From positions 1,376,001 through 1,440,000 of the forward strand of contig OZ219790.1 in the NCBI GenBank assembly GCA_964291215.2: a stretch of 64,000 nucleotides of DNA, written 5' to 3'. This stretch comes from Alphaproteobacteria bacterium. GTDB taxonomy: Bacteria; Pseudomonadota; Alphaproteobacteria; MPNO01; UBA830. Shown here piece by piece: positions 15,864-60,244 of the stretch (the first letter of the stretch is position 1; each line of letters starts with the position of its first letter). The translations under genes and the position numbers were made by a program. A model generated the notes under the pieces. The model did no database searches. It had not been told where the DNA came from and saw nothing but the letters and a program-made list of their open reading frames with translations.

Positions 15864-15898
15864 CCGATGTCAGCTTCACCAACAATGCCGGAGAACAG

Positions 15899-18079: not shown

Positions 18080-20555
18080 GTAAGCGTTCGTTCGTGCGGT
18101 GATGACGATCTGCGCTGAGGTTTGTTTTGGTGATTCGGAGAAGGGGGCTGGTAAATTTTTTTTGACGGTGCCATCAGGTCGTGCATGGTCATGTGCATCG
18201 AGGATTTCGTGTCATCATCGGGGGCGGACGCCGCTGGCGATGTGCCGCAGTCGTCATATCGTGATTCGGCCACCTGGAAGTCCCTGTACGATCGCGAGCG
18301 TATTCGAGCCAAGGCTGCGGAAGCCCGCACGGCGGTTGCGGATGCCCGCACGAAGGCTGCGGAGGGTCGCTGTGAGGAGCTGCGCTTGCAGGAGGTGGAG
18401 GGGCGCAGCCGCGCGAATTCCCTGAAGGCGATTTTCGAGAGCAATCGCGAGAAGCTGGCAGCTGCCCGTGCGGAGGTCAGGGAAGTTCGGCGGACGGCGA
18501 AGCAGTTTCTTGCGCTGAAGCAGGAGGTTGCACGTCCGGGCAGGCTTCTTGCCGAGGCCGGCGCGCGGAAGCGGTCGACGGTGGTGTCGCTGCGCATGGA
18601 GAATGCCGGCCTGAAGACCGCGATGAGGGTTCTGAAGGGTCGGGGCGCTCGAGGCGGAGAACGACAAGCTTCACAGGTCGTCGATGTACGGGCGCAAGAG
18701 CGAGAAGAGGCAGCGGGCGCCATCGAAGTGCGGCCAGCAGTGCGGCACTCTTGGCCGCGGCCGGCGCTCGAGGAGGTGGAGGAGCGGCTGGAAGTGGCGG
18801 AGGACGCGCGCTCGTGCTGCGGCACGCTGCCAACGGTTTGCACCAGGATCATCGAGATCAGGGCGCACAAGCGGCGGATTGTCCGCCCGCGCCGGGGCTG
18901 TGACTGCCCCGGTTCACCGAGCGAGGTGGCGGCGCGGCTGTTTCCCGGCACCGCATTCGGGTGTGGACGCATGTGCTGCACGAGCGCGTGCATGCGGCCC
19001 TTGCGCCGCGCCGCCCGACCAGGGGCTTTCGCCGGGAACGCCGGCCAGCTCCACGAGCCGGATGCTGCCCCTGTTCGAGCCGCTTCGGGACGCGATCCTC
19101 GCGCACCGGAACGAGGCGAGTCTGCGCCATGCCGATGCATCCGGGCCCTGAGGGAGGTCCGGAAGTCGCGCCGCGCCTGCTCTGGACGTCGGTCAGCCGT
19201 GACGCGGTCCTCTTCCACCCCTCGCGCAGCACCGAGGTCGCGGCGAAGCTGTTCGCGGACGCCGTCGGCCCCATGTATCCGGTCTGCGACCGCTACGGCG
19301 CCTGCAAGAAGCTGGCGCGCCTGTGGCCCTTCATCATCCTGTGCTGTTGCCGGGCGCATTGTCGGCGCGACTTTCCGGACTGCGCCGGCCGCAGCTGGAG
19401 GGGTGGGCGGACGAATGGATCGATCGCGGAGATCTGCCGCCTGAACACGGCTCGACTGCCTTGCTTCCGGCGGCCGGTCGGCGGCGGCGTTCGAGGCCGC
19501 GCAGGCGGCGCCGGAGACTGCGGTCGCCGCGCTGTTTGCGGCAGCGCCAGCTGGAGAGGCTTCCGAAAGCGGCGCCGGAAGGCAGGCCGCTGCGCTCAAC
19601 CATCGCGCAGGCGTGTTCGTCGACCATGGACAACAATTTCGGGGAAAGGGCTGTCAGGGGCCCGGCCAACGGGCGGAAGCCCGGCTTCGGTTCCGACAGC
19701 ATGGACGGCGTGCGGCTGTCATGTACACGGTCCTGTTCACGGTCGCGAGGAGCGGCCTCGACGTTCTGCGCTGGCTTGATGCCTGCGCGGAGAACGGCGG
19801 CCCGGCGATCTGTCGCCCTGGTTGCCGTGGCCCGGAGAGGCGGCGGAGATTCGCGGCGCCGCCGTGAGCGGCGAGGTCGAGTGCCGCTGCCACGGGCGCG
19901 ACTTCATGATCGCGCAGATGCGGCTGCTGCGCGAACTGACGATCACGGAGTGGACCCCATCGCCCGCGCCTTCTGCCGCCGCCGGCCCCGAAGCTGATCA
20001 CGTCGGACACCGAGCCGCCGCCCCGAAGACCCTCAACGAGCTCCGCCCGCTGACACTACCTCGAATACACGCGCCTGGTCGACCCGCAGATGCGCTACGC
20101 GGTCCATGACCGGAACGGCGAGCCGCTGCTCGGCTTCTCGACCGCCGCATGGAGCGCGCACTGCAACACCACGCCCGTGCTTTGCGAGATCTTGGTCGAG
20201 GTCCCGCACCGCGGCGTCTGCCGGCCGCGTCGGAACAACCAGGGGCGCGGCCGCTACGACCGACATGACAGGGTCGACAAGTCGAAGAAGGACATCTGGC
20301 CCGCTCCGCAAGGACTGGAAGCGGACCCTCAATCGCTGAACCCTGCAACCGGCACAGGATGGTGCTCAGCTCCTCCTCCGCAGCGCCGGGACAAAACCGC
20401 AACCAATGCGGAAAACACGGCATGGCGCCAGTGCCTGCCAACCTCACCGCGCATCCCGGTGCACGAAACCGCTCCGGATGACGCTGGAACTCCCTGACAA
20501 AGGCCCGTCAAACGGACGAAAACAACAACACCTCACCCCACGAACGAACGCTTAC
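18080..20555 (+). mobile_element. Second-type IS66-family element (degenerate transposase plus DUF4338 remnant)
   Basis: TIR pair GTAAGCGTTCGTTCGTGCGGTGA / TCACCCCACGAACGAACGCTTAC; pieces RHADAS, VCDRYGACKKLA, CRAHCRRDF, MDNNFGERAVRGP..GRK; DUF4338 remnant ~19866-20339; no TSD seen. Confidence 0.8.
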
Positions 20556-20589
20556 CTTCGGTCAAACCATGCGTGGCTTGTCGGGGTCC

Positions 20590-23500
20590 TCACCCGCCGT
20601 CAAGAATGTCCTTCAGCGTCTCGCAGGATGAGGCCGGCTCCACGCTGCGCGCGAACTCCGGGGGGATGAAGAGGGGGTTGCCGGGAGACCAGAGTTCCAC
20701 GCTCCCGGCATTGTCCTCGAAATACTCCGTGCCCGTCGTCACCCGCAACTCTTCGGTCATGCCCGGCGCCAGCAACCCGTATTCGCGCCGCCCCATCGGC
20801 CGGACCTCAACGCCCGGCGCCATGAGGCCGGGCGCTGCGACGATCCGGTCCAGATCCTCCATCGTCACGATCGGGGGCAGACACGTCAACATGGCGATAT
20901 CGTCCTGCGTCGCGGCGTCGATATCGAACCCTGCGCCCCGGGCGTCGTCCGCCTCGCGTTCGATCGCGGCGACGAGGCCGGCGCGTCCGCGCTCGTCCCG
21001 GCCCGAGAGCACGCCTTGCGATATCGCGCCGGGCAGCCGCGCCAGAATCGGCTGCAGGCGCCCGACCACAGTCTCGAACAGGCCGATGCGCTCGCGGAGC
21101 GCGCGGTAGATGTCGGTCTCGACCGTCCCCTTGCAGTGCAGGTTGACGATCCGGACGATCGCGTGCGCCTGGCCCAGCCGGTCGATGCGCCCGATGCGTT
21201 GTTCGACCCGCATGGGGTTCCACGGCATGTCGTAATTGACCGCTGCGCCGCAGAACTGGAAGTTCAGGCCCTCGGCCGCGGCGTCGGTGCACAGCAGGAT
21301 ATCGGCTTGCCCTTCGCGGAACCGCCGTTTCGCATCGTCCCTGTTCATGCCGCGCCATGCGCCGTCGGCTCCGGGCGCCTCTCCGCCGCGCCCGGAGAAG
21401 CACAGCAGCGTCCACTCGCCGTTCTCGAGAAGGGCGTCGCGCAGGAAATCCATGGTGTCGGTATATTGGGTGAAGACCATCGCCTGGCGGTAGCCGTCCT
21501 GGCGCAATTCGCGCAGAACGCCCTTCAGGCTGTCGAGCTTGCTGTCCGGCGGAAGCTGCCCGACCGCGCCGAGCAGGCGGTCGATTTCCGCAGCCTGTTC
21601 GAGGACGAGGGCCCTGCGTTCGAGGCCCGCTGCATCGTCGGTGTCGGTGGCCTCGTCGGCTGCATCGTCGTCCGGCAAATCCTCATCAAGGCCGAAGAGG
21701 TTCTCGCGCACATCGCCGACGATGGCGTCGCGGCGCTTGCGCAGAGTCTCATGCAGCGCCGCGAAGCTGCTGGCGAGCCGGCGGCGGTAAATCGTCATGA
21801 CAAACCCGACCGCCGTGCGCTCCTTCTCGCTCGCCCGGCCGTATGCTATGGCAATGTAATCCTCGACAGCGTCGTAGAGCGCCCGTTCATCATCCGTCAT
21901 GTCGAGAAAGCGGTCCTCGACCCGGCGCTCCGCGATCGGCGTCTTCATCGTCCCTTCCCGGAAGTAGCGCCGCAGCAATTCGCGGGTGTTACGCGAGATC
22001 AGCCTGCGCACCGGGGCGCCGGCCCGCGCGATCGCGACCGCGCCCCGGCGTTCGTCGCTCTCAAGCCGGCGCCGCGGAATGCCCGCCTCGTCGCGCAGCG
22101 CGCGCAGCGCCTTGCTGGCCTTCAGCCGGGATAGGCCGGTCAGGCGTTCCGCCTCGGTTCTCCCGATCTTGCCATAGGCGCGCTCGGCCGCACGGAACAG
22201 AGACGCCATGCGCTCCAGTGCCTCCGCCGAAGGGTTCCGCTGTTCAATATCGTCAAAGAAGTCGAGAAACGCCCGTTCATGCCATTCCGGCGGCAAGCCG
22301 AGCAGGTCGAGCAGGTCGTGGACCTCGACGGGGTGCACTTGCATCGGCGTCGCCGTCAGCAGGACCAGCCCTTTCGTGCGGTCCTTCAGGCCGCGCATGA
22401 GCCGGAGCAAGGCGTTGGGGCCGCCTTCCTGCTGGCTGCCGGGGGCGCGGCGCCGGGCGTGATGCGCTTCGTCGAGCACCACAAGGTCCCACGGCTCCGC
22501 CCTTTCCAGCAGGTCCGCCTGCCGCTCGCTCCGGCGCATCAATTGGCTGGAGGCGATCACGACCGGCTCGCGATGCCATGTTTCGCGCCCGGCGGCGTGC
22601 TCATGGCGCCCTTGCAACGCCGGCGAGGGATGCCATGCCAGCTTGCCGCCATCGTAGATCGGCCAGTTCAGGTTGAACTTCTCTCGCAGCTCGACCTGCC
22701 ACTGGACGAGCACGGCCTTCGGCGCCAGGATCAGGATACGCTTGGCCCGTCCCGCCAGCCATGCTTGGCGCAGCAGCAGCCCGGCCTGGACGGTCTTTCC
22801 CAGCCCCACCTCGTCGGCGATCAGCAGCCGGGGCGGCCAGTTGCCGTACAAGCGCTCGAATGCCCGCGCCTGATGCGGCCAGGGATCGACCGGCGCGGTC
22901 GCCTCGCCAACCCGCACACCGCCGCCCGGCCGCGACGGCGCCTCCCGGATGAAGGCCCAGACCCGCGTGCGCAGCGTGCTGGCTGGCGGCAGGTCGGCGC
23001 CGTTATCGGGCCGCGGGTCTGGCCGGCGCACGAGCAGCCTTGGCACCTCGTCCACCCGTTCCAGCCGCGCCGGCCGGCCCGTCTTCGGCATGAAGCGCAT
23101 CAGGTCGCGGCGCGCCGCCTCCGGCACGTCCAGCACAATCGCGCGCTGCGCCCTGTCGGCCCAGAGGTTGGCGAAATTCGCCTCCTCCGCATCGACCCGC
23201 CCCGGCTCAGGTCCCCAGCTGGTATAGACGCTGATGCTCTCCCAATTGGCCTGCCAGCCGGCACCAGTCTCGTTGATGCTGCCGGTCCAGGCCAGCCGAT
23301 CGCCGGCCAGGTCCTCGATGATCCCGGTCTTCTCGTGGAAAATACCGCTGTCGGCCACCGGCTCTCGTGCGGCATTGCAGGGCACGGCGACCCTGACTGT
23401 GAGAAACCCGCCCGCGACCATCCACGCCAGCAGTTCCAGCGCGCCTGCCGCCGCCGGGTCGGGCGGGGCCAGCGGCAGACATGCCAAGTGCCGCTCAACC

Positions 23501-23760
23501 AAAGCGCGGAGGTCGTCTCCCTGCCGGATCGCCCCGATCTCGTCCGACCCCAGCGTGCAGCCGACCACCAGCCGCATCCGGCCGTCATTGCGCACCAGCC
23601 CTTCGATGCCGCGCGCCGCCAGCGCCAGCGCCCCGGCGTTGAAATACCCGGTCAGCCGGTCGTAGCGCTCCGCGTCCTCAAGCGCGGGAACGTAGAACAG
23701 CCGGACAAGGCCGCCGTCCTCGGGCGTGTATTTCAGGCGCCATGCGCGATCCCGCAGCAT
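20590..23760 (-). CDS. PLD-family nuclease domain fused to SNF2/SWI2 helicase
   Basis: FHEKTG...TGSINET (HxK..GSxN), LLIADEVGLGKT, DEAHH, LLTATP, CTDAAAEGLNFQ, NYDMPWNPMRVEQRIGRIDRLGQ. Confidence 0.92.
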   Translation of the reverse strand: MLRDRAWRLKYTPEDGGLVRLFYVPALEDAERYDRLTGYFNAGALALAARGIEGLVRNDGRMRLVVGCTLGSDEIGAIRQGDDLRALVERHLACLPLAPPDPAAAGALELLAWMVAGGFLTVRVAVPCNAAREPVADSGIFHEKTGIIEDLAGDRLAWTGSINETGAGWQANWESISVYTSWGPEPGRVDAEEANFANLWADRAQRAIVLDVPEAARRDLMRFMPKTGRPARLERVDEVPRLLVRRPDPRPDNGADLPPASTLRTRVWAFIREAPSRPGGGVRVGEATAPVDPWPHQARAFERLYGNWPPRLLIADEVGLGKTVQAGLLLRQAWLAGRAKRILILAPKAVLVQWQVELREKFNLNWPIYDGGKLAWHPSPALQGRHEHAAGRETWHREPVVIASSQLMRRSERQADLLERAEPWDLVVLDEAHHARRRAPGSQQEGGPNALLRLMRGLKDRTKGLVLLTATPMQVHPVEVHDLLDLLGLPPEWHERAFLDFFDDIEQRNPSAEALERMASLFRAAERAYGKIGRTEAERLTGLSRLKASKALRALRDEAGIPRRRLESDERRGAVAIARAGAPVRRLISRNTRELLRRYFREGTMKTPIAERRVEDRFLDMTDDERALYDAVEDYIAIAYGRASEKERTAVGFVMTIYRRRLASSFAALHETLRKRRDAIVGDVRENLFGLDEDLPDDDAADEATDTDDAAGLERRALVLEQAAEIDRLLGAVGQLPPDSKLDSLKGVLRELRQDGYRQAMVFTQYTDTMDFLRDALLENGEWTLLCFSGRGGEAPGADGAWRGMNRDDAKRRFREGQADILLCTDAAAEGLNFQFCGAAVNYDMPWNPMRVEQRIGRIDRLGQAHAIVRIVNLHCKGTVETDIYRALRERIGLFETVVGRLQPILARLPGAISQGVLSGRDERGRAGLVAAIEREADDARGAGFDIDAATQDDIAMLTCLPPIVTMEDLDRIVAAPGLMAPGVEVRPMGRREYGLLAPGMTEELRVTTGTEYFEDNAGSVELWSPGNPLFIPPEFARSVEPASSCETLKDILDGG

Positions 23761-23763
23761 GGG

Positions 23764-26676
23764 TCAGTGTTCGTCGTCGCGCCAGAGCCTGAGCTGTTCC
23801 GGCTCATCGACATGCTCGCCGTAGGCCAGCCGGCTCAGCTTGTAGAGCGCCTCGAAGTCGTTGCCCGAAGCCGCCGCCTCGCCTTCGAGGGCGATGCCCG
23901 TGAACGCCCCGGACACCGGCAGCACCTCAAGCACAGCTTCAAGCGCCGCGAAGAAACGAGGGTTTCGGTCCATCCCCGCATCCGCGAGCAACTCCCGCGC
24001 GGCGTCCAGCGAGCGCAGGCGCGCCAGATTGGCGCCGTGGTGGATGACATCGATCATGCCGCGCGAACCGTCGGCGGGGCCGAGCGTTCCCTTGGCCGCC
24101 CGGCGCGCACTGTCCCACAGCAGGATGTCGCCGCCCTTCCTTTCGCCCAGCCGGCCCACGATGCCGCGGTCGAGGTCGGCACCCACGGCGCGGGCCAGCC
24201 GCAACGCCTCGTCATAGGAGAACGCCGGCGCCTTGAAGGCGTCCCACGCCAGCACGAAGAAGGCGGTCGGGGCGTCAAGGTCGGAATCGGCCTTCATGTG
24301 CGTCAGCATCTCCAGCCGCCAGCGCTTGACCTCGCGGCGCGCGGCGTCGAGCGCGTCCTCCGGCGTCGCCGCGTACGGGTCCCACTCGAACGGTAGTTGC
24401 TGCCGCCGCTCCTCCGGCATCTCGCGCGGCGAGCCGCGCCTGAGCGGCCAGTGGCGCGAGAATGCCTCGAGCGCCGGGCCGAAGCAGGCCAGATAGAGAT
24501 CCACCCCGGCGATCCCCGCCTCCTGGAACTCACCGATCCGCCGCCGGACGGCCTGCGCCACCTGCGGCTCCACATCCTCCCAGTAGAGGCCCTGCTCCGT
24601 GTCGGCGTCCTTCGCGCGCGGGCGGCAGGCCAGGAAAACCGTGCTGTTCGCCGCCGCCTTGTCCCGGATATGCAGGCTGCCCTCGGCTTCCGTGTTGACC
24701 GGCCAGGACGCGGTGATCGTGAACCCCGCTTCCATCAGGCCCGCGGCAAGCGCGTCCCACGCCCCTGTCGCCTTGTGCGTGAACATCAGCGTCATGACGC
24801 CGTCGGGCTTCAGCACCCGCCGGCATTCGGCGAAGATCGACGCCATGCGCTCCCGGTAGTCGCGGCCCGCCAACGCCTTCGCCCCCTTCTCGCCCCGAAA
24901 ACGCGCCGGGTTCGCCACCGCCTCGTTCTCCTTGTCGGTCAGGACGCGCCGAAACAGGTCCGGAAACACATGCCCGGCGGTGCGCTTCAGCCAGACATAG
25001 AAGAAGTCCGAGAGTTCCGCATACATGACGTTGTCGTAATAGGGCGGGTCCATGACCACCGCGTCGATGCTGCCGTCCGCGACATGGTCGAGGCTGTCGC
25101 CCGACTTGCAGGTGACGGTGACCGGCGGAGGTGTATGTTCGACGGCGAACAGACTGCCATCGCCGCCGGCTTGCGGACGGACAAGCGACACGAGTTCCTT
25201 GATGCACTTGGCGGTCTGGCCGATGGCCCAGTCGTAACCCACACCAGCGACGAGAGGGGCCATTTCGGCGTAGGACCACTTGAACGAGAAGTCGTGACGG
25301 TCGAATGCTCCCAACAACACCTCTCGGTTGGCGTGCCAGCGGGTCATCCGCGCGTTGTAGTTCAGGAGCTTGTCGAGCGAGAGCGCCAGGTACCCGTATG
25401 CCGCTTGGCGGATGTCGGTCAGCCGGCCGGCCTCGCGGTCAGCCTCCAGCATCTCCCGGAAGACCTCGACGCTCGTGCCGTGGCACAGAAGCTGCCGGGG
25501 CGAAAACAGGTCGCGCCAGTACGGCATCCCGTATCGTTGTGGCTCGGTGGTCTTGTTGCCATCCGGAATCCGCTCGCCGGGGATGATGTCAAACGCCTCC
25601 CATTCGGGGAGTTTCTCGTCGAGGAGCGCCGCAATCTCGGCACCATTGTCGTCCTCCGGCTGCGGTGCCCGGTAGCCGCGCACCCACCGGTCCTGGCCCC
25701 GCCTGCCGGACTTCAGTATCTTGCCCGGTACGCGCTGCTTGTAGACCACCGCGTAGAGCTGCTCGCCCATGGCCCCGGCCCGCGCCTGGCGCTTGATCTC
25801 GTCGCCGTCGATGACGCGCCCGCAGTCCGCATACGGGCAGGCCCCCGCCCCGCGCGATACCGTGCCCGACGACTGGTCCCGCGCATCGCCCACGATCTCG
25901 AACGAGCACACCCGGCCAGCCGGCCCCGCGCCCGTCTCCGGCTTCAGCCGAACCCCGGTGCCGTCCGGCGCCAGCCGCCAATTCGGCGACAAAGGCACCA
26001 AACCCGCGCAATACGGGCACGAAATCGTCCGCGCCCAAAGGTAGCCTTCTACCCGAGCGCCTTCTGACTCAGCGGGAAATATCCCTTGGTATTTCGGCTC
26101 CGCCCGGCGTAGAAAGTCGGCCGTCAATTCATGGAACTCGGAAAACAATCGAGAACCATATTGAGCAGGCCACTCTGTCGTGGCCCTGAGGATCAGGGCA
26201 GCCACCGGGTTCAGGTCGTTGGCAAAGGAAGCCAATCCGAGACGGGCAGCTTCGATCGGAATGCTGCCCCCGCCGGCGGTCGGATCAAGAACCGTCGTGC
26301 CAGACAACGCGCTGCCTGCTACAGATCCGATCCACCGAATTTCGTCGGAACTCGGAGAATAGGTGAACGCCCGTCGGTACCCGTAGGGATCGGGCCCGAG
26401 ATTCCGTCCAGTTCTCTTGGCAGCGTCGATCCGGTGACGGGTGGCCACCGGGTCGCCATGAATGCCCAGAACATGAAGGAACCTGTCGCGGTCCGCATCC
26501 GCCGGCAGCAGCGACGCCAGAACGGCCGCACGCGATGCAACCAGAGGCCGACGCGCCCACCAGACGTGGAGGTAATACGTCGGAGGCAACGCCGTCATAG
26601 ACCGCCGCTCCCGCACACTTTCCTCCCCAAGCGCCGCAATCGGAAGCCAACGCTCGATCAGACGGGTGTCGGACAT
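23764..26676 (-). CDS. DUF1156-family amino (N6-adenine) DNA methyltransferase with Zn ribbon
   Basis: RLIERWLP...LHVWWARRPLVASRAAVLASLLP (DUF1156), VLDPTAGGGSIP (SAM motif I), NDLNPVA, CPYC/CPYADC, MDPPYYDNVMYAELSDFFYVW. Confidence 0.92.
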   Translation of the reverse strand: MSDTRLIERWLPIAALGEESVRERRSMTALPPTYYLHVWWARRPLVASRAAVLASLLPADADRDRFLHVLGIHGDPVATRHRIDAAKRTGRNLGPDPYGYRRAFTYSPSSDEIRWIGSVAGSALSGTTVLDPTAGGGSIPIEAARLGLASFANDLNPVAALILRATTEWPAQYGSRLFSEFHELTADFLRRAEPKYQGIFPAESEGARVEGYLWARTISCPYCAGLVPLSPNWRLAPDGTGVRLKPETGAGPAGRVCSFEIVGDARDQSSGTVSRGAGACPYADCGRVIDGDEIKRQARAGAMGEQLYAVVYKQRVPGKILKSGRRGQDRWVRGYRAPQPEDDNGAEIAALLDEKLPEWEAFDIIPGERIPDGNKTTEPQRYGMPYWRDLFSPRQLLCHGTSVEVFREMLEADREAGRLTDIRQAAYGYLALSLDKLLNYNARMTRWHANREVLLGAFDRHDFSFKWSYAEMAPLVAGVGYDWAIGQTAKCIKELVSLVRPQAGGDGSLFAVEHTPPPVTVTCKSGDSLDHVADGSIDAVVMDPPYYDNVMYAELSDFFYVWLKRTAGHVFPDLFRRVLTDKENEAVANPARFRGEKGAKALAGRDYRERMASIFAECRRVLKPDGVMTLMFTHKATGAWDALAAGLMEAGFTITASWPVNTEAEGSLHIRDKAAANSTVFLACRPRAKDADTEQGLYWEDVEPQVAQAVRRRIGEFQEAGIAGVDLYLACFGPALEAFSRHWPLRRGSPREMPEERRQQLPFEWDPYAATPEDALDAARREVKRWRLEMLTHMKADSDLDAPTAFFVLAWDAFKAPAFSYDEALRLARAVGADLDRGIVGRLGERKGGDILLWDSARRAAKGTLGPADGSRGMIDVIHHGANLARLRSLDAARELLADAGMDRNPRFFAALEAVLEVLPVSGAFTGIALEGEAAASGNDFEALYKLSRLAYGEHVDEPEQLRLWRDDEH

Positions 26677-26699
26677 CGGCGCGCTACGCTCTTGCCGGA

Positions 26700-27659
26700 T
26701 CATCGCTTCGTGATCTTGGGACCGGCGTAGACCACATAAACAGGCTTGTCTGCCTCGACGGGCCAGGAAAAATGCAGACGCAGCGTCTGGTGCTGCACCT
26801 TGCCGTGCCATGTGCAAAACAGCGTGTCTGCCCGGTTCTCCGGATGGGTAAACGTCAACTCTTGTCGAAATTTCAATTTTTCTGTGTCCGACGAGTCAGA
26901 AAACCACGCACGGTCGCCCGTGAAATAATCATTGTAGATTCGGTGGCCCTCTTCGTTGCGTTTGCCGTCATCATCAAAAGCGCTCGCGAAACGGTTCAAC
27001 ACCTCGATCAGCACCACAAGTCGATCAGCAGCGCTTCTGGCAAACGGAACCGCTTCGAGCGGCGCAAAGCACTCCTTCGCAAACACCAGGTTTGGGAAAC
27101 GGTTGCTTGATGCCTTACGCAAATCGTTCCACGAACGCAGCGGCGGCGCGCGATGCCGTAGCGATTCTTCCAGCGTTTCCGCACCCCACCAGTTCTCGAC
27201 CGCGGCGTTGCGGTCGTCCAGACCCTCGGCCTTGCGAACCCAGATTATATCTATGGGGGAAAGGCACCACTCGGACGGAGCCAGGCTGACCAGGCCGCAA
27301 TCTACGCCGTGCAGGGATCTGAAGGCCGCTTCGCCGATGGCCGTGTCTGTGACGACCTCGCCGTCATGTTCCAGCCAGTCATCATCGCGGTGCCTTCGCA
27401 CATCGTCCCAGAACGGGCCGGACCGGGTCAGCCAACTCATGACGGCGCGCTGGCGTTCGATGTCAAGGCTCCCGATTGCTCTCCGCAGCGGCAGCCCCGG
27501 TATCGGCTTGGTATTCAAGAATGCCCCATTGCTTTGGACTTCGATGCCGAAGCTCTTGGCCGTCTTGCGCAAGGCCATCAGCCGGGACAATGCATCCCGA
27601 AACCCCGCCAGATCGTGAAATTGCCCGTGGACGGACAGGTCGTTGACCAGCAGGTCCAT
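26700..27659 (-). CDS. Hypothetical protein; putative toxin/RNase effector (NsnC-like position)
   Basis: Intact 319 aa ORF starting 1 nt after the ATPase stop; C-terminus CTWHGKV...LRLHFSWP...VYVVYAGPK reminiscent of RelE-like RNase folds (inference). Confidence 0.7.
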   Translation of the reverse strand: MDLLVNDLSVHGQFHDLAGFRDALSRLMALRKTAKSFGIEVQSNGAFLNTKPIPGLPLRRAIGSLDIERQRAVMSWLTRSGPFWDDVRRHRDDDWLEHDGEVVTDTAIGEAAFRSLHGVDCGLVSLAPSEWCLSPIDIIWVRKAEGLDDRNAAVENWWGAETLEESLRHRAPPLRSWNDLRKASSNRFPNLVFAKECFAPLEAVPFARSAADRLVVLIEVLNRFASAFDDDGKRNEEGHRIYNDYFTGDRAWFSDSSDTEKLKFRQELTFTHPENRADTLFCTWHGKVQHQTLRLHFSWPVEADKPVYVVYAGPKITKR

Positions 27660-27660
27660 G

Positions 27661-28800
27661 TCAACTCCAGCCGGCGAAGTAGCTCATGTCACGATCAAAT
27701 TGATCGAAGAAACCATCTGGCCAGCCATCGATGTTACCACCGCGGTCGATTGCCGGACTCTCGACTTGCGGCTTGGCGTCACTTGTCTCCGCTCGAGGTC
27801 GGAAAAAGTGGAGCGCGATATCCTCGTGCGACAAAACACCGGATTTTACCGACCGGCGAATACCACTCAGGATATGATCGCTATGTGTTTCGACCATGAC
27901 CTGCACACCGGTGGACGAAACCTCCGCCAGAAACTCGCCCATTGCAGCTTGCCCCGCCGGGTGCAAATGCACTTCGGGATTCTCAATCAACAGCAAATTA
28001 CCTGCTTCCGATGACAGTGCCGCAACCACGATAGGAAGGACCTGTGTAAGCCCGAAGCCGGTATGCATCGGCCGATGGAAATCCGTTCCGGTAGAAGTCC
28101 GGAGACCCAAGGTTACGGCGTTGGCGCGAGTGACTTTCTCGACAACCAGCCCGCACCCCGGAAAAAATCGCGCCATTCTTTCTTCGACCTGGTGAAGCAA
28201 TGTAGGAGGTGCGCCAGAAAGCACGAGCCCTCCCGTCAGTTCAAGGTGCCCCTTCGAAAACAGCATGCTGACCGCATGCTCACCTTGAGGTCCCACTACC
28301 TGTGCTTCTTGAGGATCCTTCAGCATATACGTCTCTTGTGGCCCGAGCCTCTCGGCAGAAAGGTAGGTCAACCCCCGCAGCTGTTGCGCCAAGAAGCCTT
28401 GTCCGTGCGGATGAAACAACAGATTATTGAGCGGACCGGGCCTTGACTTTTCCTTTCCATCGACCGAAACATGCGCCACATGCATGGCCATGTTCTCGCG
28501 TTCACCGGAAAATACCCATTTGTAAGTTCTGCTCTCGTGAACCAACTCAAGGCTGAATTCCCGACGCCCGTACTCCTCGTCGATCACATCCGCCGCTGTG
28601 CCAAGGCATATCGTCTCCCCGTTGAGCATTAGCCGCGGAGACCATTGGTGCTCTCGCATGGTCTGATGCATCAATACCAGCGCCTGCATGACCGATGACT
28701 TTCCTGAGGCGTTGCCGCCGGACAGCAGCGTCAGGGGTTGGAGCTGCAGCTTCAGCACCTCGAAACACTTGAAGTGCCGAAGGTCAATTTGAGTAATCAC
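27661..28800 (-). CDS. ABC/AAA_21-type ATPase with DUF3696-like C-terminus
   Basis: LRHFKCF, GGNASGKSS (Walker A), YLSAERLGP, GFGLTQVLP, LLIENPEVHLHP (Walker B), VETHSDH, WPDGFFDQ. Confidence 0.9.
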   Translation of the reverse strand: MITQIDLRHFKCFEVLKLQLQPLTLLSGGNASGKSSVMQALVLMHQTMREHQWSPRLMLNGETICLGTAADVIDEEYGRREFSLELVHESRTYKWVFSGERENMAMHVAHVSVDGKEKSRPGPLNNLLFHPHGQGFLAQQLRGLTYLSAERLGPQETYMLKDPQEAQVVGPQGEHAVSMLFSKGHLELTGGLVLSGAPPTLLHQVEERMARFFPGCGLVVEKVTRANAVTLGLRTSTGTDFHRPMHTGFGLTQVLPIVVAALSSEAGNLLLIENPEVHLHPAGQAAMGEFLAEVSSTGVQVMVETHSDHILSGIRRSVKSGVLSHEDIALHFFRPRAETSDAKPQVESPAIDRGGNIDGWPDGFFDQFDRDMSYFAGWS

Positions 28801-29884
28801 CGAGCACCTCCCGAATCGCTTCCCGTGTCATGGCGAAGCGGGTCCTCACTTTTGTCGCATCATTCGGCCCATAGGTAATCGCAATATTGAAATTCTCATT
28901 GTCGAGTAGTTGATAAACCGCTCCGCGAACCAGATCAGCAGATGATTCGACAAGATTTTCATCGTAATGGGAAAACTCCGTGGACATGACATCCCAGAAA
29001 GAAGCATTCAATACTGAACGCCTTTCCTGACCTGGTTGGTGTTTTCGGAAGGCGAAATTGCCGAACAACTGCAAATTGTTGGAAAGGCCTCGGCGGAAAG
29101 CAACGGAAACGCGCGCTAATTGTATTCGATTCATCTTGTTCATCTTACGCAAGCAATCGGCCAGAAATTGGTCCATATCTCCACGGTAATCGTTCAGATC
29201 CAGGAGTCTGAATGCGCAAAATCGGTTGACAAATTCTCGATCTCTCATGGTCTTAAAATTCAAGCTATTACCAGTCGATTTTCGAAAAATATCCGTTTGC
29301 GCTTCTTTCTTGAGAAAGAGAGTCCCTGCGCCCATGAACAAGGAATTCCGCATCTGTTGGCGGGTTAGCGGGACGCCTCCATTGACCCTTTCGAAGATAT
29401 CCAGCCGGGCGCGCTCCGGCACTTTCGAGTCGATAACGTAGAAGATGAGATTGCAGTCCTCGACACGGTTCTGGATCTTGACGGGCAAGTCCGAAAATCT
29501 CCGGTTATTGAGCCCTATCCTGTCGGGGAGATTTAGCCTCAACTCATCCTTGACGAAACGGTGGAATGTAGAGAGACGCTGCAAGCCGTCCACTACCACC
29601 ATGCGTCCCCGATCATCCTCCGCGATGTAGAAGACGGGCAGGGGTATTCGCATGATGACCGATTCGACCAATTTGCTCTGCTTGTTTTCCGGCCAGATGA
29701 AGTCACGCTGGAAGTCCGGGTCCATGATGTAGTTGGACTGGTCGATCCGCCGGATGACGTCATGGACTGTCCGGTTCTCGTGCCTGATCAGGAGATCATC
29801 GAGCGGATAGTCGCCCCACGATGTGTCCTTTTGGTCCAGACCTTCCGGTTCCTCGTAGTCTGGTGTGGTTTCTTTTTCTTGCAT
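28784..29884 (-). CDS. DUF262 (ParB/Srx-like, GmrS-type) protein
   Basis: MDPDFQRDFIW...QSKLVESVIMRIPLPVFY...VVDGLQRLST...IFERVNGGVPLTRQQMRN. Confidence 0.92.
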   Translation of the reverse strand: MQEKETTPDYEEPEGLDQKDTSWGDYPLDDLLIRHENRTVHDVIRRIDQSNYIMDPDFQRDFIWPENKQSKLVESVIMRIPLPVFYIAEDDRGRMVVVDGLQRLSTFHRFVKDELRLNLPDRIGLNNRRFSDLPVKIQNRVEDCNLIFYVIDSKVPERARLDIFERVNGGVPLTRQQMRNSLFMGAGTLFLKKEAQTDIFRKSTGNSLNFKTMRDREFVNRFCAFRLLDLNDYRGDMDQFLADCLRKMNKMNRIQLARVSVAFRRGLSNNLQLFGNFAFRKHQPGQERRSVLNASFWDVMSTEFSHYDENLVESSADLVRGAVYQLLDNENFNIAITYGPNDATKVRTRFAMTREAIREVLGDYSN

Positions 29885-29892
29885 GACCCGTG

Positions 29893-30360
29893 CTACCTTT
29901 TCGGCTCGGTCAAGAGGCGCCGCAGCGCGGTCAGTACCCGGCGCGGGTTCTTGCGGTGCATGGCCATGCCCAGCCAGTAGGCCGCCTCTTCGCGCCCCAT
30001 CGCCTCTATGCCTTCCGCCACGGCGCGCATGTTGTCGCGGCTGCGCATCGGCGCCAGCGTCCGGAAGAGCAGGCCGAGCATGAGGGCGAGGTCCTCGCTC
30101 AGCGCATGGCTCCGTTCCGCCGCATCGACCTGCCGGCCCGGCTTCACGCCTGCCTGCGACAGCCTTTTCAGCACCCGGTGCTCCACCAGGTCGAGATTGC
30201 GGCCCCTGAGACCGGCGATGCGCAGCGCGCAGGCCACGTGCGGCGAGGCGGCGGCCGGCAACTGCCAGACCTCGTAGGCAGAGTCCGCCGGCCCGTGGCG
30301 GCGCACCCGCAACTCGTAACGCGGCGCGGACGCCTGCGCCGCCCGTTCCGCCCGCGCCAC
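29893..30360 (-). CDS. Small accessory protein of DUF499 systems (DUF3780/DUF7680-like position)
   Basis: 155 aa; GTG overlaps DUF499 stop (TAGTG); LSEDLALMLGLLFRTLAPM...IEAMGREEAAYWLGMA..RKNPRRVLTALRRLL. Confidence 0.75.
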   Translation of the reverse strand: MARAERAAQASAPRYELRVRRHGPADSAYEVWQLPAAASPHVACALRIAGLRGRNLDLVEHRVLKRLSQAGVKPGRQVDAAERSHALSEDLALMLGLLFRTLAPMRSRDNMRAVAEGIEAMGREEAAYWLGMAMHRKNPRRVLTALRRLLTEPKR

Positions 30361-33300
30361 TACGCCCGGGCCTCCGCCGCAACATACGCCGCGCCGCTCG
30401 CGAACCGGCTGAGCCGTCCGGTCAGTTTCTCCGCAGCGTCGCCGGCCATCGGCAGCCCGCTCTCGAAGGTCAACTCGAACCCGGCCTCAAGGTTGGCAGA
30501 GCTGGCGTCGCGAAGCTGCGGCTCCAGGAACTCCCGGACCGGCTGCGCATCAGCCACCGGCCCCCGGAACTCCAGCTCGAAACTGCCGCCGCCGCGGGTC
30601 TCGTACCCTCCGGTCAGGGTGACGATCCGTTCCGCCCCGGAAATCGCGCCCACCGCATTGAAAAGCGGAAAGGCGTCGTCGGCATCGAACAGGCGGATGG
30701 TCAGCGCCGCGACGACCTCCACCTTCTTCGCGCGCGCCTGCTCCCAGAGTTGCTGGAGCGCTTCGCGAAGAATGCCTTCCGCAGCCAGGGAGACGACAGA
30801 CGGGCCGGGAGGCTCCCCGCCCTCGCACCGTCCTCCGTTTTCCGCCCCTTCCGTTTCCTCGCCGCCAGCGCTGCCCGCGGCGGGATCGGGCGGCCTCTCC
30901 CGCGGCCAGATCTCCTTATTCCGTGCATAGGCCATCGTGAAGACCGTCGCCTGCTCGTCGATCCCGATCGCGGCCGGCGGATCGCCCGGCCCGCACAGCA
31001 GGTCTCCGCGCCGATACACATACTCGCCCTGCTCGATGCCCCGCCGCACGCCGCGCACGAAGATGTCGTCGCCCGCCAGGATCGGCAGGGCCGGGTCGCG
31101 GCGGAACTCGTCGCGCAACGACCGCGTCGACATCTGCCCCTTCCCGAGCGGCGTCCGGTCGCGCACATAGGCGGGCGAGTCCGGCTCGTCCTCGGGCAGG
31201 CGCAGCTTGTTCAGGTCACGCAGCGCCCGCACGACCTGCTGCTGCCCCGCGCCCGGCCGGTCCGAGGTCGAGTGCATGTCGATCGCCGTATGCGCCAGAT
31301 CGATGTCGCCCCCGCCGACACGGTGGCGCGAGGGGTAGAACACATGCCGGTAGCACTGCTGGACGGCAAGCGCCAGGTCATGCTCCGAACGCACCTCCAT
31401 CTCGCGCAACTGGGCCTGCTGGTGCTCCGCCAGATCGACCAGACGTTCCGGCTTCTTCATGTCCCGCAGCGCCAGCCGGCGGCGGGTCCAGCGGCGCATG
31501 TCCTCCCCGCGCTCCCCGTCGGCCGCCACGAAGACCAGATTGTTGCGGAGCAGGCGCAGGGCGGCGCCTTCCGATCCCTTCCTCTCAAAGATGCGCCCGA
31601 TCAAAGCCGGCACAGCCTCGACCGAGGCGCCGACGGTCACGGCCTCATAGCCGAGAACCACCAGTTTCGGGCGACCGTCCCCAACCTCGTCGGCCACGTC
31701 GAACGGGCCGCCCGGAAACGGTACCGCCTCCAGCGTCCCGCCGTTGAAGATCGTGCGGATCCGGTCGTTCAGCTCCGCCCGCACGTCCCCGGCGTCGATA
31801 TGGTCTTCCGTGCGCCGGATCATCTGGTTCAGATTGGCCTCCGCCAGAAAGCGCATCGGCGCGCCGGGACGGTCGTCGAGATAGGCGGACTCGGCAATGA
31901 ACCTCTTGCGCGCCTCCTCGACGAAGCCGATGTCCATCGACGCACCCAGCACCGAATAGCGCAGCCGCTCCGGCGATACCCCCTTCAGCGGGTCGTTGAA
32001 CGCCAGCGTGTGCATGAAGATGGCGCGGGCGACACGGGAGGCGTAGGGCGGCAGTCCCCCGTGATGCGCGGCGTCTATCTCCTCGGCCAGCGCCGCCTTG
32101 CCGCCCGGCCCCCCGGACACGTCGTTGGAAATGGCCGGCGCGAACGCCGACTGCCCGAGACGGGTCACGATCTCCTGCCGGACGGGTTCGTGGCCCGGGT
32201 CGATATGGTGCAGGTGGATGGCCGTCGCGTCGGCCGGCCGCTCCGCCCACAGATGGGCCACCGTGCGCGCAAGAAGCCGCAACATGCCCCGCACACGCTG
32301 GAAATTGCCGAGCGTCGCCGTCTTCGCCGTCAGCGTGTCCAGAACCTCCGGGTGAAGGGGATAGCTCGAAAGGAACGCCGCGGCCGCTTCCGGGCGGTTG
32401 GCAGCCTCCGGCAAAGCGTCCGCGTGGGCGCTCCACTGCGCCCGGTAGGCGTCCGCGGCAGCAGCGGCCGCCGCCTCGTCTATCGACTCGAACAGACGGC
32501 GGCGGAGCACCCGGGCCGTCTCGTCCTCTTCGGTGGGGTTGAGCAGTGTCGCCTTGCGCGCCGACACGCTCTCCGCCTCCGCCATGCCGTCGGCGATGAA
32601 CCGATTCTCGTCGCGGTAAGCGTCGGTCGCCCGTCCGTCCTTGCCGATCGCCAGCGTATGGACGAGAGCGGCGTTCGGCGCGCCTTCCACGGCCTTGAAC
32701 AGCGAGGTCAGGAACGCCGTCAACTGGGCGTGGCCGAGAGCCGCCGCCTTGCGCAGATAGACCGACAGCTCGTCGAGCAGGATCAGCGCCGGTTCGCCGC
32801 CGAACAGCTCACGCAGCGTTTCGGCCCCGGGCGCGATCCGGCGCTCGTCGCTCGTGCGCACCCGCTCATATCCGTCCCGGCCCGCCAAGGCCGTGGCGAT
32901 CTCGCCCCACGGCGTAAAGGCGAGATGCCCGCCTTCCATCCGGCGTCCGTTGGCCGGATCCGCGTTTTCCCCGTCAAAGGCGGCAATGCGCACACGGCCC
33001 CGCGGCAGAAGCGCAGGATCGACGAACTCGGAAATCCCCGGCAAATCGACGCCGCCGCCCGCAGCGTGGCACAGCGCGATCAGGCCGTGCGACTTGCCCC
33101 CGCCATAGGAGGTGTCAAGACGGAAGATCGACGCCGCTTCGCCGCCCGCGCCGCTCAGCCGGGCGCAGACATTGGCCAGAAGGCTCTTCAAACCTCTCGT
33201 CGGGTAGGTATTGGCGAAGAACCGGGCCGGATCGACATAGTCGGCCGCGCCCTCGCCAACCACCACCTGAGACAGGTCCGCCGCGAAATCGGCCTCCGTC

Positions 33301-33362
33301 ACGGCGCCCGCCAGGACATCTGCGCGCGGGCGGCAGGACTCGAAAATCGTCGGTATCGTCAT
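30360..33362 (-). CDS. DUF499-family (BrxC/PglY-related) AAA+ ATPase
   Basis: IFESCRPRADVL...FAADL...FFANTYPT, LDTSYGGGKSH (Walker A), LILLDEL (Walker B), SYPLHPE, FQRVRGMLRLLA. Confidence 0.92.
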   Translation of the reverse strand: MTIPTIFESCRPRADVLAGAVTEADFAADLSQVVVGEGAADYVDPARFFANTYPTRGLKSLLANVCARLSGAGGEAASIFRLDTSYGGGKSHGLIALCHAAGGGVDLPGISEFVDPALLPRGRVRIAAFDGENADPANGRRMEGGHLAFTPWGEIATALAGRDGYERVRTSDERRIAPGAETLRELFGGEPALILLDELSVYLRKAAALGHAQLTAFLTSLFKAVEGAPNAALVHTLAIGKDGRATDAYRDENRFIADGMAEAESVSARKATLLNPTEEDETARVLRRRLFESIDEAAAAAAADAYRAQWSAHADALPEAANRPEAAAAFLSSYPLHPEVLDTLTAKTATLGNFQRVRGMLRLLARTVAHLWAERPADATAIHLHHIDPGHEPVRQEIVTRLGQSAFAPAISNDVSGGPGGKAALAEEIDAAHHGGLPPYASRVARAIFMHTLAFNDPLKGVSPERLRYSVLGASMDIGFVEEARKRFIAESAYLDDRPGAPMRFLAEANLNQMIRRTEDHIDAGDVRAELNDRIRTIFNGGTLEAVPFPGGPFDVADEVGDGRPKLVVLGYEAVTVGASVEAVPALIGRIFERKGSEGAALRLLRNNLVFVAADGERGEDMRRWTRRRLALRDMKKPERLVDLAEHQQAQLREMEVRSEHDLALAVQQCYRHVFYPSRHRVGGGDIDLAHTAIDMHSTSDRPGAGQQQVVRALRDLNKLRLPEDEPDSPAYVRDRTPLGKGQMSTRSLRDEFRRDPALPILAGDDIFVRGVRRGIEQGEYVYRRGDLLCGPGDPPAAIGIDEQATVFTMAYARNKEIWPRERPPDPAAGSAGGEETEGAENGGRCEGGEPPGPSVVSLAAEGILREALQQLWEQARAKKVEVVAALTIRLFDADDAFPLFNAVGAISGAERIVTLTGGYETRGGGSFELEFRGPVADAQPVREFLEPQLRDASSANLEAGFELTFESGLPMAGDAAEKLTGRLSRFASGAAYVAAEARA

Positions 33363-34472
33363 CGCGCGCCCTCGGCCCTCCTGCTTCTGTCAACCGGGCC
33401 CGCTGCGCCGATCCCGGATCTCCGGAACCGCCGGCCCAGCATGTCTCCATCGGCGACAGGCCGCGGCTTCGCGCCGTCACGACACAGACGGCAGCCATCG
33501 TCGCTCCCGCCTCGTATCCGCCAGTCAACGCTTGCGCGAAACATACGCCAAAACAGGCAAGGCGGTCCAGTAGACGGCGGGCATGCGCCGCCCGTCCAAA
33601 AGGCATCCGGCGCTGCCCGAAGGCGGCCAGCGCCGGATGCCGCCCGGCCCACGAAGTCCTTGTCGTGCGCATCGCGAAACTCGCGCACCAGAGCGCGGTT
33701 GCGCTCCGGGATGGTGAACCGGCGCTCCAGGGCCTGCGGGTCCACCGTGATCGTGTCTGAACCGGCGAACAGCGCTTCGAATTCAGCCGGCGCAGCCTCG
33801 TCCATCGCGCTCCAGTCGCGCTGCCGCGGCGCACGGGGAACCCGTCTTCGGCGGCGGTCTTCACCGTCATCGCCCTGTAGATGCGGTAGGGCACGAGATG
33901 ACCTTTCTCGATCGCTCGGCGCAGGTCGTATCCGTATAGCCGTCGCAGGGGCTGTCACTCGTCGGCGCCGGAGCACCGCCTCCCGCCACCCAGAGGCAAG
34001 GTCTGGCCGTGAGCGGGGCGGCGGTCGGCGCTCCGGAGGGAGGGGGCGCTGCCGCCGTTCCCATTCACCTGTCGAAGGAGCACGGCACGATGCAGGCAGC
34101 AATCGCACGGCGACGCGCGCACCTATCTCATTCATTTCGTCGGAGGCGGTCTCGAGGACAAGCGCTATGTCGTCGAGCGCTACGTCTCGAAGGCCAACGG
34201 CGAGATCGTTCCCGTCCAGCGGCACGGCACACAAGGGCCGTCGCAAGGCCCGGGGCACGATCGTCACCGCGAAGGCGTTTGAGGAGATATGTCCGGCCCG
34301 AGACGAGATCATCATCGCGACGGGGGTCAGACTGCGGCATTGCGGGGTGCAGCTGTGAGTCTGGCGCAGCCTCGGGATCTTCGCCGACCGCCGCCAGCGC
34401 GGCTGATCGTCCCGGATGTCCTGCCGGCCCGCCTCCGCCGGCCGTATTTCACCCCCCGACCTGGAGCAGCCG

Positions 34473-35464
34473 ATGAGTTACCGCGACCCCGCCGTCGGCC
34501 GCGAGCGCGAACGAGTGGCCCGGCGCACTGCCGAACATCGCGACGCCGGCCTGTGCCCGAAGTGCGGAAAGCACCAGCCGGAGCCTGATCGAAGCATTTG
34601 CGAGCCGTGCGCCGAGCGTGCCCGTGCCGCCGGCCGCGCCCGCGACGCCCGGCTGCGGGCCGAAGGCAAACCGCGCAGGGCCCCGGAGCGCGCGAAGTCC
34701 TGCCAGCGCGGCGGTCCCGCCGGCAAGCCGCCGCGCGGCGGGGGGCTGCACGAAGTGCGGCGCCAATCCTCCGCAGGACGGGCGGCGCCGGCTGCGCCGG
34801 GAAGCGCCGCGCCGCCGACCGTCGGCGCTACGCCGAGGCCAGCGCTCGGGGCGAACTCTACGGGGGCAAGGACCCGGAGGCCAAGCGCCGGAGCGCCCGT
34901 CTCGCCAGCGCGAAACGCCGGCAGGCCCGGCTCGATGCCGGCGTGTGCACCCGATGTGGCCGCCAACCTTCCATCGAGGGAGGCACGACCTGCGGGTCAT
35001 GCCTCGAAGCCCGCCGCGTCGCGGACCGCGAGCGGTACGGCGTCCACCGGGCGGCGGGCCTCTGCGTCTCCTGCGGCCGCCCGGCCATCGACGGCCAGTC
35101 CCGGTGCGGCGTCTGCGCTGCCGTCGAGGCCGAGCGCCGCGACAAGGACGGAAAGAATGAACGCGAGCGCTACGCCCGGCGGCGCGCCCGCTCCGGGTGT
35201 ACCGATTGCGGCCGGCCGGCATTCGGCGCCTGCCGTTGTCCCGCGTGCGCCGCACGGTCTCACGAGCGGTCCGCGCACTTCAGGGGCATCCCTGCATGGG
35301 ACCCGCAGTTCATCGTCGTCGAGCTCGCCACAGGGGCGGAGCACGGCCCCTACGAGCCGGAGGCCGAAGCGGCGGCCAGCCTGGTGTTCGCGAAGCTCTC
35401 GCGCGACCAGGGCGAGATCGTGAGCGACGCGCCGGTCACCGCCACGGCGACCGGCCGGTCCTGA
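34473..35464 (+). pseudogene. Arg-rich protein with ~5 tandem CxxCG-x(7-10)-CxxC zinc-finger repeats (frameshifted)
   Basis: GGAG RBS; LCPKCG..CEPC, GCTKCG, VCTRCG..CGSC, LCVSCG..CGVC, GCTDCG..CPAC spread over three frames. Confidence 0.7.
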
Positions 35465-35820
35465 GCGGCCCCGTCCGGCGGGGGCGGTTTCGGGGAAGAG
35501 GACAGCGCATGCCGGGCAAGCGCCCGGCAGGGCCGGAGAGAGTGGGTCTCTCGCTTGCCGGGCTCGAACCCGAGAGGAGACCCGGCATGTTCGACCCTTG
35601 CACCGACTTCGATCCCATCGCCCCGTCCACCGGCGCCCTGCTCGCCGAGATCGGCGTGGACCCCCGACGGGTCCGCGAGACGCTGATCGACGACTACGCC
35701 CGCCGGTGCCCGGACCGCGAGGTCCCGGCGGACGGGAGTTGGAGGAAAGCAGGGGAAAGGTGTCGCGGTCCCCGTCGTTCGCATCCCATCTTCATCATCC
35801 GAAACCTGAAGGAGAATCCC

Positions 35821-36261
35821 ATGAGCTTCGGACTCAACCGCGCGGAAGTCATCGGCCGCCTCGGCGCCGACGTCACCGTGAACCACCTCGCATCGGGAGG
35901 CCGTGTCGCCAATCTGAGCATTGCGACCGACGAGAGCTACATCGACTGGAACGGCAGCGGCGAGCGCATCGACAAGACCGAGTGGCACCGGGTCGTGACC
36001 TTCCAGGACGGATTGATCGACATGCTGGTCAAGCACGCGAGGAAGGGCCGGCTGGTCTACCTCGCCGGCAAGATGCAGACCCGGCGCTGGCGCAAGGAGG
36101 GCGAGGACTCCGACCGCTTCTCCACCGATATCCTGCTGGCGCCTGGCTCGCGCATCCAGTTCCTCGATCGGCCGAACGACAACGGCGCGGCGGCGGAAGC
36201 GCCTGCCAACGGTTCGCCCGCGCCGGACAGCGACGCCGACCCGGACCAGATCCCGTTCTGA
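35821..36261 (+). CDS. ssb: Single-stranded DNA-binding protein (mobile-element type)
   Basis: MSFGLNRAEVIGRLGAD...SIATDE...KTEWHRVV...KGRLVY..GKMQTRRW; acidic tail DPDQIPF; AAGGAG RBS. Confidence 0.92.
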   Translation: MSFGLNRAEVIGRLGADVTVNHLASGGRVANLSIATDESYIDWNGSGERIDKTEWHRVVTFQDGLIDMLVKHARKGRLVYLAGKMQTRRWRKEGEDSDRFSTDILLAPGSRIQFLDRPNDNGAAAEAPANGSPAPDSDADPDQIPF

Positions 36262-36279
36262 TACCGCATTTCGCTCCCA

Positions 36280-36315
36280 AAGAGGGCCGGCGCCCCGCGC
36301 GTCGGCCCTTTCTTC
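36280..36315 (+). terminator. Probable intrinsic terminator after ssb
   Basis: AGGGCCGGCG-loop-CGTCGGCCCT hairpin followed by TTCTT. Confidence 0.5.
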
Positions 36316-36439
36316 ATGCAGGCAGGTTCGAGTCTCGCCGCGGCGCATACGGGAGTGGGAGCAAGGCTGGAAGCGGGTGAACCGCGCGAGGAGGAGAGGG
36401 AGGCCGCTCGCGCACCCATCACGCGACCCGGAGAACCCG

Positions 36440-60214: not shown

Positions 60215-60244
60215 CGGGAACCTCTCTCAAGGCTGGAAGAGTAA

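Follow-up and report, generated by a model that had tools for sequence, protein, structure and literature searches.

BREX-related (BR) type 2 systems, also known as MANTIS, Gao_RL or Gao_29, hemimethylate a 6-bp asymmetric site in a manner that depends on their ATPase and on MtsB, and inverted sites favour restriction; the authors of that work flag anti-MANTIS escape as a question (bioRxiv 10.64898/2026.09.23.753747). The characterised Menshen system protected against T2, T4, T6 and Fado without a MANTIS-like core, and 27.9% of Menshen systems adjoin methylation systems (Li et al. 2025, PMC12065111). Embedding in operons of the DUF499 type is published as well, both for 62.7% of Hma systems and for auxiliary effectors in BR systems. 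Here, we analysed a 64,000-nt stretch of DNA (the window; contig OZ219790.1, positions 1,376,001 to 1,440,000 of assembly GCA_964291215.2, an Alphaproteobacteria bacterium), in which seven consecutive genes join a MANTIS-like four-gene core to a complete Menshen triad. The triad sits in a swappable cargo slot of the core operon. We consider it probable that Menshen acts here as an independent second layer of defence and that it arrived via recombination between related cores.

The seven genes (Table 1) are joined, in gene order, by a 1-nt overlap, an 8-nt gap, a 17-nt overlap and gaps of 1, 23 and 3 nt. An earlier reading of this DNA from its letters alone (the sequence-only reading) had described seven intact minus-strand open reading frames (ORFs) with six such junctions, and our re-reading agreed with it exactly. 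Pfam assigned, in order, DUF499, DUF7680, GmrSD_N/DUF262, AAA_15 with DUF3696, no family, DUF1156 with N6_N4_Mtase, and PLDc_2 (below its cut-off) with SNF2 and Helicase_C. The restriction-like DUF499/DUF1156/PLD-SNF2 architecture that the same reading had proposed for the outer genes was borne out by Pfam (DUF499, 7.5e-31; DUF1156, 6e-15), by PADLOC (HmaC, 1.3e-94, for the ATPase; HmaB, 1.4e-74, for the methyltransferase) and by the motifs. A short-read contig of run X1, which possibly represents the source sample, reproduced positions 26661-29357 without differences. A promoter/terminator scan stayed at chance level (2 vs 1.6; 13 vs 9.7). The GC content of the triad is 50-59%, that of the core 67-72%; recent arrival of the triad was rejected as the explanation, since NsnA was lower in GC than DUF499 in all 16 of 16 loci (mean 0.535 vs 0.653).

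Table 1. Genes and features of the defence locus, in window positions.
Feature	Position	Strand	Product	Evidence
DUF499 AAA+ ATPase, MtsA/HmaC-like	30360..33362	minus	1000 aa, single terminal stop	Walker A GGGKS 87, Walker B LLDE 195
DUF7680 small subunit in MtsB/DUF3780 position	29893..30360	minus	155 aa, single terminal stop	Pfam PF24728, 2e-44
nsnA: ParB/DUF262 predicted DNA sensor	28784..29884	minus	366 aa, single terminal stop	QRDFIW 59, DGLQR 99, FERVN 164
nsnB: ABC/OLD-type ATPase with DUF3696 tail	27661..28800	minus	379 aa, single terminal stop	GGNASGKS, GFG, EN-type Walker B
nsnC: effector, N-terminal PIN-like and C-terminal RelE/YafQ (BECR)-fold predicted RNase	26700..27659	minus	319 aa, single terminal stop	PADLOC NsnC, 1.2e-117
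DUF1156 N6-adenine methyltransferase, MtsC/HmaB-like	23764..26676	minus	970 aa, single terminal stop	DPTAGGG 131, DPPY 543
PLD/HKD nuclease fused to SNF2 helicase-like ATPase, MtsD-like	20590..23760	minus	1056 aa, single terminal stop	HEK 142, GSIN 160, DEAH 430
Cargo slot, DUF7680 stop codon to ~17 nt before methyltransferase start	26691..29892	minus		identity breaks vs second copy and L001
Methyltransferase patch p1 (aa 25-37), dimorphic	26566..26604	minus		allele comparison
Methyltransferase patches p2 (aa ~370-382) and p3 (aa ~435-468), variable	25273..25569	minus		allele comparison

The three inner genes are adjacent and co-oriented in the order A-B-C, carry every motif that Li et al. give for Menshen, and are spanned over nearly their full length by the PADLOC Menshen profiles. 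NsnA (PADLOC NsnA, 7.5e-108; GmrSD_N, 7e-22) contains the ParB-DUF262 motif set QRxxxW, DGxQR and FxxxN, and its motifs were invariant or nearly so in 21 sequences. NsnB matched its profile at 4e-103 and DUF3696 at 6.4e-15. For NsnC, we compared a structural model (predicted local distance difference test score, pLDDT, 85) with known folds: the C-terminal part resembled YafQ (Z 6.4, root-mean-square deviation (rmsd) 3.0, 87 aligned) and the N-terminal part the PIN protein SSO1118 (Z 5.8, rmsd 4.3, 111 aligned). These Z values are modest; many RelE and PIN toxins were among the matches, and the folds agree with the published architecture. Residues H285, R294 and H296 (H-R-H) of NsnC were invariant in 18 aligned sequences, and published passages dispute whether the PIN domains of Menshen have lost their activity. 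Judged by these profiles and motifs, the triad is a bona fide Menshen with predicted anti-phage activity, a true member (PADLOC 1e-103 to 1e-117) where the sequence-only reading had noted a resemblance.

The borders of the slot became apparent from two close relatives of the core. A second core copy (L083) lies in the same genome (C1:1878489-1890482), with proteins 90-97% and DNA ~97% identical to those of the window; its slot holds a different cassette of 2.45 kb with three genes, encoding a TIGR04255-like protein, an unknown protein and a metallo-β-lactamase (MBL). L001, the closest relative outside the genome (DUF499 98%), also carries a cassette of this type and not Menshen. Identity to both is 96-99%, falls to background at the DUF7680 stop codon and returns ~17 nt before the methyltransferase ATG. 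The spacer at 26677-26693 shares 17 nt with the MBL-gene end of the second copy, which hints at a former MBL cassette here. The DUF499 gene of the second copy is frameshifted by a 7-nt deletion (possibly an assembly error), and for this reason the intactness of the operon in the window suggests either selection or recent arrival.

Cassette turnover was general among related cores. We surveyed the best 79 of at least 425 relatives, of which 78 had a readable slot; 59 slots were closed and measured 18 to 9192 nt. Counting whole and partial occupants, the TIGR04255-like/unknown/MBL triad was present in 35 slots, Menshen in 27, Septu in 22, a STAND-ATPase with TPR in 13, TIR-SLOG in four, IrrE-DUF4411 and an ABC-three-component system in three each, and PDC-M38 in two, with none of these in eight slots. 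At least eight cassette types were thus present, and two or more were stacked in 29 slots, in varying order. Menshen was counted by tblastn, since protein cluster C0 merged NsnA and NsnC: 14 occurrences were complete, one was cut by a contig end and 12 were relics. Recurrence of the triad in DUF499 loci, for which the sequence-only reading had proposed a neighbourhood survey, is therefore established, with 15 whole triads (including the one cut by the contig end) and 12 relics. The window's order of all seven genes was found again in L006, L009, L033 and L054 and in the metagenome locus L103, while L020 shows it with a short additional gap; in two more loci (L070 and L010), Menshen or a relic lies just outside the slot. 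A whole NsnC was found in none of the 12 relics and a whole NsnA in four, and the absence of whole NsnC fits, weakly, an NsnC that is toxic without NsnB. Operons that consist of the core alone are carried by plasmids of Aminobacter, Skermanella and Sinorhizobium, and Nostoc has one whose slot is empty. In 12 of the 78 slots we saw orphan fragments of core genes; in most cases these came from the 5' end of the methyltransferase gene or the 3' end of the DUF7680 gene and lay where cassettes join, most clearly in L028 and L043.

Other slot contents deserve mention in their own right. The commonest cassette (example L083:10590-12999) consists of the TIGR04255-like protein, a protein with a QEWEG motif and a ComEC-like MBL hydrolase; PADLOC 2.0 gave no match to it, and a literature search on TIGR04255 found no report. 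A small STAND-like ATPase paired with a large ATPase-TPR protein recurs in the slots of L002, L058, L063 and L073, again with no PADLOC match. In the slot of a distant core (L117:3522-5233; 45% DUF499), a DUF4365 gene and a 397-aa gene of no named family precede Menshen.

We then asked how Menshen and the core are related across loci. Menshen presence is scattered on the DUF499 tree (16 of 74 rows; 13 changes vs 14.5 when shuffled), and its sequences co-diverge with DUF499 (rho 0.79, n=16; single genes 0.40-0.67). The MBL triad co-diverges too (rho 0.73-0.75), so Menshen does not stand out in this respect. Because kin are not independent, the significance given by these tests is overstated. 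Sister pairs cross phyla, as judged by record titles; the taxa in these titles are, we presume, typical of sponge microbiomes. Sharp borders, scars, and co-divergence despite random presence are all explained by homologous recombination between related cores; if exchange depends on close homology, Menshen should co-diverge with DUF499. The likely anchors would be two conserved stretches, the 3' end of the DUF7680 gene and the 5' end of the methyltransferase gene. Between them, cassettes could be swapped or stacked without an integrase, and the transcript of the core would probably serve for their expression. Cassettes may instead have been lost differentially from an ancestral array. The variety of cargo also bears on whether Menshen is a mere passenger, the slot being a genomic sink that provides expression and co-transfer and the targets of Menshen being unrelated to what the core misses. 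Such hitch-hiking, a hypothesis named in Payne 2024 (bioRxiv 10.1101/2024.01.29.577857), is suggested by the very different cassettes that fill the slot (Septu, TIR-SLOG, STAND-TPR, IrrE-DUF4411, ABC-three-component, TIGR04255-like-MBL) and by the decay of 12 of the 27 Menshen occupants to relics. We nevertheless regard it as unlikely, since the cassette repertoire is small and recurrent, Menshen often stands beside methylation systems (27.9%, PMC12065111), and a DUF262 sensor of modified DNA complements BREX in the BrxU precedent.

Next, we considered Menshen from the side of its own phylogeny. NsnC matched in four of 400 genomes of the class, once weakly; the three of these that were examined comprised two unlinked loci and a core-linked one, possibly a duplicate of a locus among the 79. 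A first metagenome scan with NsnC gave no match. With NsnA, we found the core next to three of the best 80 of 471 metagenome loci, and in 43 of the 80 the flank was long enough for a judgement; the trees kept 62 of the 80 rows, those without a near-full NsnA or NsnB being left out. All 19 core-linked Menshens in the tree, including that of the window, fell into one 25-row clade (Shimodaira-Hasegawa (SH)-like support 99; 24 distinct rows, SH-aLRT 100). Strong ascertainment bias attaches to this count, because the window and 16 loci, which together make up 17 of the 19 linked rows, had entered via the core. Among informative loci known from metagenomes only, two of six inside the clade and none of 27 outside were core-linked (Fisher p 0.03, kin not being independent). 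For six rows of the clade, no core lies in the vicinity, and in five of these the flank suffices to say so. Among 14 hand-picked unlinked Menshen loci, of whose 95 ORFs 51 were scanned, six had another methylase or a BREX gene close by, which agrees with the 27.9% of Li et al.

This pattern is the place to weigh a guard role for Menshen in the manner of PrrC or PARIS, in which it would be dedicated to the core, sense inhibition or loss of the MANTIS-like complex and kill the cell, as the sequence-only reading had partly proposed. The confinement of core-linked Menshens to one clade, the metagenome contrast, the kinship of NsnB to the ABC ATPases of PARIS and Septu and the methylase or BREX genes near unlinked loci are compatible with such a role; the positive support we observed for it is the clade pattern. 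Against it, the slot holds another cassette in the nearest relatives, namely the second copy and the 98% relative; clade members with ample flank lack a core; another cassette co-diverges as strongly; and the characterised Menshen protected without this core (PMC12065111). Because both modules also occur alone, the core in plasmid-borne core-only operons and Menshen mostly unlinked to a core, obligate guarding is unsupported, and we judge a dedicated guard to be quite improbable.

Our favoured model of two independent layers draws on observed gene identities, catalytic motifs, slot borders, cassette turnover and co-divergence, and makes the following predictions. By analogy to MANTIS, the core would methylate a short self site on one of its strands and cut unmethylated incoming DNA: the DUF499 ATPase would load the methyltransferase, DUF7680 would take the activating role of MtsB, and DNA whose sites are unmethylated, preferably with the sites inverted, would be cleaved by a dimer of the PLD-SNF2 protein. 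By analogy to Menshen and GmrSD, NsnA would be a sensor of phage DNA, and most probably of modified DNA that the core fails to restrict. NsnB would then set free or activate NsnC, whose RelE-fold domain would cleave RNA and thereby halt infection. The T-even phages T2, T4 and T6 carry base-modified DNA with glucosylated hydroxymethylcytosine. In a bolder version, this Menshen lineage would be a specialised partner of DUF7680-type MANTIS that fires when a DNA modification or an inhibitor defeats the core, and the whole would be an integrase-free, recombination-driven shuffler among phyla whose methyltransferase patches reassort to reprogram the target site; we regard this extension as rather unlikely.

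Several findings count against our favoured model. All three large core proteins score far under the NCBIfam cut-offs of NF042962-4, at 190/1200 bits for the DUF499 protein, 229/1000, and 333/1100 for the PLD-SNF2 protein with NF042964 (E 5.2e-99), that is, at 15-30% of the thresholds. No sequence homology between DUF7680 and DUF3780 was detected: hhalign comparisons of 34 vs 2 and 27 vs 22 sequences both gave the level of block-shuffled controls, the DUF3780 profile being shallow, and cross-searches with the two hidden Markov models gave no match. Because of this absence of detectable homology and the sub-cut-off scores, we infer rather than observe that the MANTIS mechanism transfers to this core. 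Septu in the same slot co-diverges with DUF499 weakly (rho 0.34, 0.17). The co-divergence seen for other cassettes could reflect one ancestral multi-cassette array, differently eroded, or a shared habitat or gene pool, and the restriction of core-linked Menshens to one clade would also be expected from a tighter partnership.

The first two of these findings, together with the preference of PADLOC for the HmaC/HmaB models over its DUF499/DUF1156_MTase models, could mean that the DUF7680 branch works by a different mechanism from that of MANTIS, with another role of the small subunit or another target logic. No PF12635 (DUF3780) match was found anywhere in the source genome, where the small gene is DUF7680; an ESM Atlas search with DUF7680 returned no usable named match, and a fold search with it returned generic helical bundles only. 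However, gene order, the N-terminal PLD domain, DPPY and the Walker motifs are as in MANTIS, and variable patches of the methyltransferase lie where the MANTIS recognition loop lies. The DUF7680 model (pLDDT 86) has four strands and five helices, the same make-up as described for DUF3780 (PMC12839542). We hold a separate mechanism to be very improbable.

The methyltransferase patches were studied by comparing alleles. Three patches occur as discrete alleles that reassort freely, in 24 combinations among 43 full-length enzymes, and patches 1 and 2 are independent (12/12/8/8), which suggests specificity shuffling. Patch 2 and the start of patch 3 appear to correspond to the MANTIS recognition loop (MtsC 444-527), as placed by their offset from DPPY and without an alignment. 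The two core copies of the source genome may recognise different sites, because they differ at patches 1 and 2. We saw no link between the methyltransferase 5' allele and the cassette next to it: each of the two alleles occurs after Menshen and after other cassettes. Methyltransferase codons ~62-210 are highly divergent between near-identical copies of the core. Over ~2.7 kb of the methyltransferase and SNF2 genes, the second copy is identical to that of the window nearly throughout, which suggests recent gene conversion or assembly collapse. One genome offers a natural paired test, with near-identical cores, different cassettes and different methyltransferase patches. Two questions can be put to it directly, namely whether the embedded Menshen deals with modified phages or acts as a guard of the core, and whether DUF7680 stands in for MtsB. 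The reassorting patches in turn constitute a ready panel for mapping the rules of base recognition.

Beyond the operon, the sequence-only reading had contrasted the intact genes with a shredded island around them. The decayed neighbours are real, but they are not peculiar to the island and represent genome-wide mobile-element debris: positions 12999-20556 consist mostly of sequence with 10 to 250 diverged copies in the genome, and in 12 random 20-kb windows such repeats account for 31% of the bases. The island lies between long intact genes, and no repeat of at least 10 nt was listed at its ends. Decayed insertion-sequence families with tens to 250 copies, one with an ISAzo13-type transposase domain, occupy 12999-20556 and 60244-63688. 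Remnants of integrative or plasmid-like elements, including an SSB gene and a YspA-SLOG gene, lie at 12356-13044 and 35197-38573 with 3-9 genomic copies; one fragment among them is, we assume, integrase-like. A small helix-turn-helix (HTH)-like gene, presumably excisionase-like, lies upstream of DUF499 in 16 of 74 relatives (e.g. L020, L030 and L033); it was not detected at 33363-33500 of the window, where it may be eroded, and is faint in L001. The same genome carries more distant SNF2-methyltransferase-DUF499 systems in the Hma order at C1 102-113 kb (L085) and 832-840 kb (L084), with gaps between the core genes and, in one of them, an ABC-ATPase match between methyltransferase and DUF499.

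Finally, we compared the locus with described systems. A DUF499 ATPase, a small protein, a DUF1156 N6-methyltransferase with DPPY and a PLD-SNF2 protein occur in the same order in MANTIS, with intact motifs (PMC12839542). The window differs in having DUF7680 where MANTIS has DUF3780/MtsB, with NCBIfam scores below cut-off, in that no MtsR-like repressor gene was found at the locus, and in the Menshen inside the operon, which is absent from the available passages of the MANTIS text (bioRxiv 10.64898/2026.09.23.753747). Taken together, profiles and motifs place the core as MANTIS/Gao_RL-like rather than as a strict MANTIS member, and no PglZ, which marks BR type 3 and BREX, was present among the seven ORFs. 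A pairing of MANTIS with Menshen was not found in the literature searched, the supplements of PMC12065111 and PMC12839542, which may list it, lying outside that search; a search on DUF7680 likewise found no report, and the available text of the Millman preprint does not mention 'Menshen'. The triad shares with Menshen NsnABC the gene order, DUF262 motifs I-III, the EN-type Walker B and GxG, DUF3696, and the PIN-like and BECR domains with H-R-H; it differs in its embedding in a DUF499/DUF7680 operon, whereas the passages of Li et al. name BREX and type I/III restriction-modification neighbours (PMC12065111). Hma systems also have co-oriented cassettes nested between DUF499, DUF1156 and SNF2 core genes, with Septu as a common occupant, and the Menshen passages of Payne et al. 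concern ABC ATPases and not embedding (bioRxiv 10.1101/2024.01.29.577857). Hma has three genes in another order and, as BR type 1 is defined, a C-terminal PD-(D/E)xK nuclease on the helicase and no small subunit, whereas the window has a four-gene core with an N-terminal PLD. The pEFER BREX with BrxU likewise places a DUF262 protein inside a methylation-based restrictor (Payne Discussion, bioRxiv 10.1101/2024.01.29.577857). BrxU is a DUF262-HNH DNase; the 366-aa NsnA has GmrSD_N only, with no DUF1524 HNH fusion of the GmrSD/BrxU type, and its partners are an ATPase and a predicted RNase. The parts and the theme of embedding are thus already known, and a specialist would find their combination at this locus useful rather than surprising.

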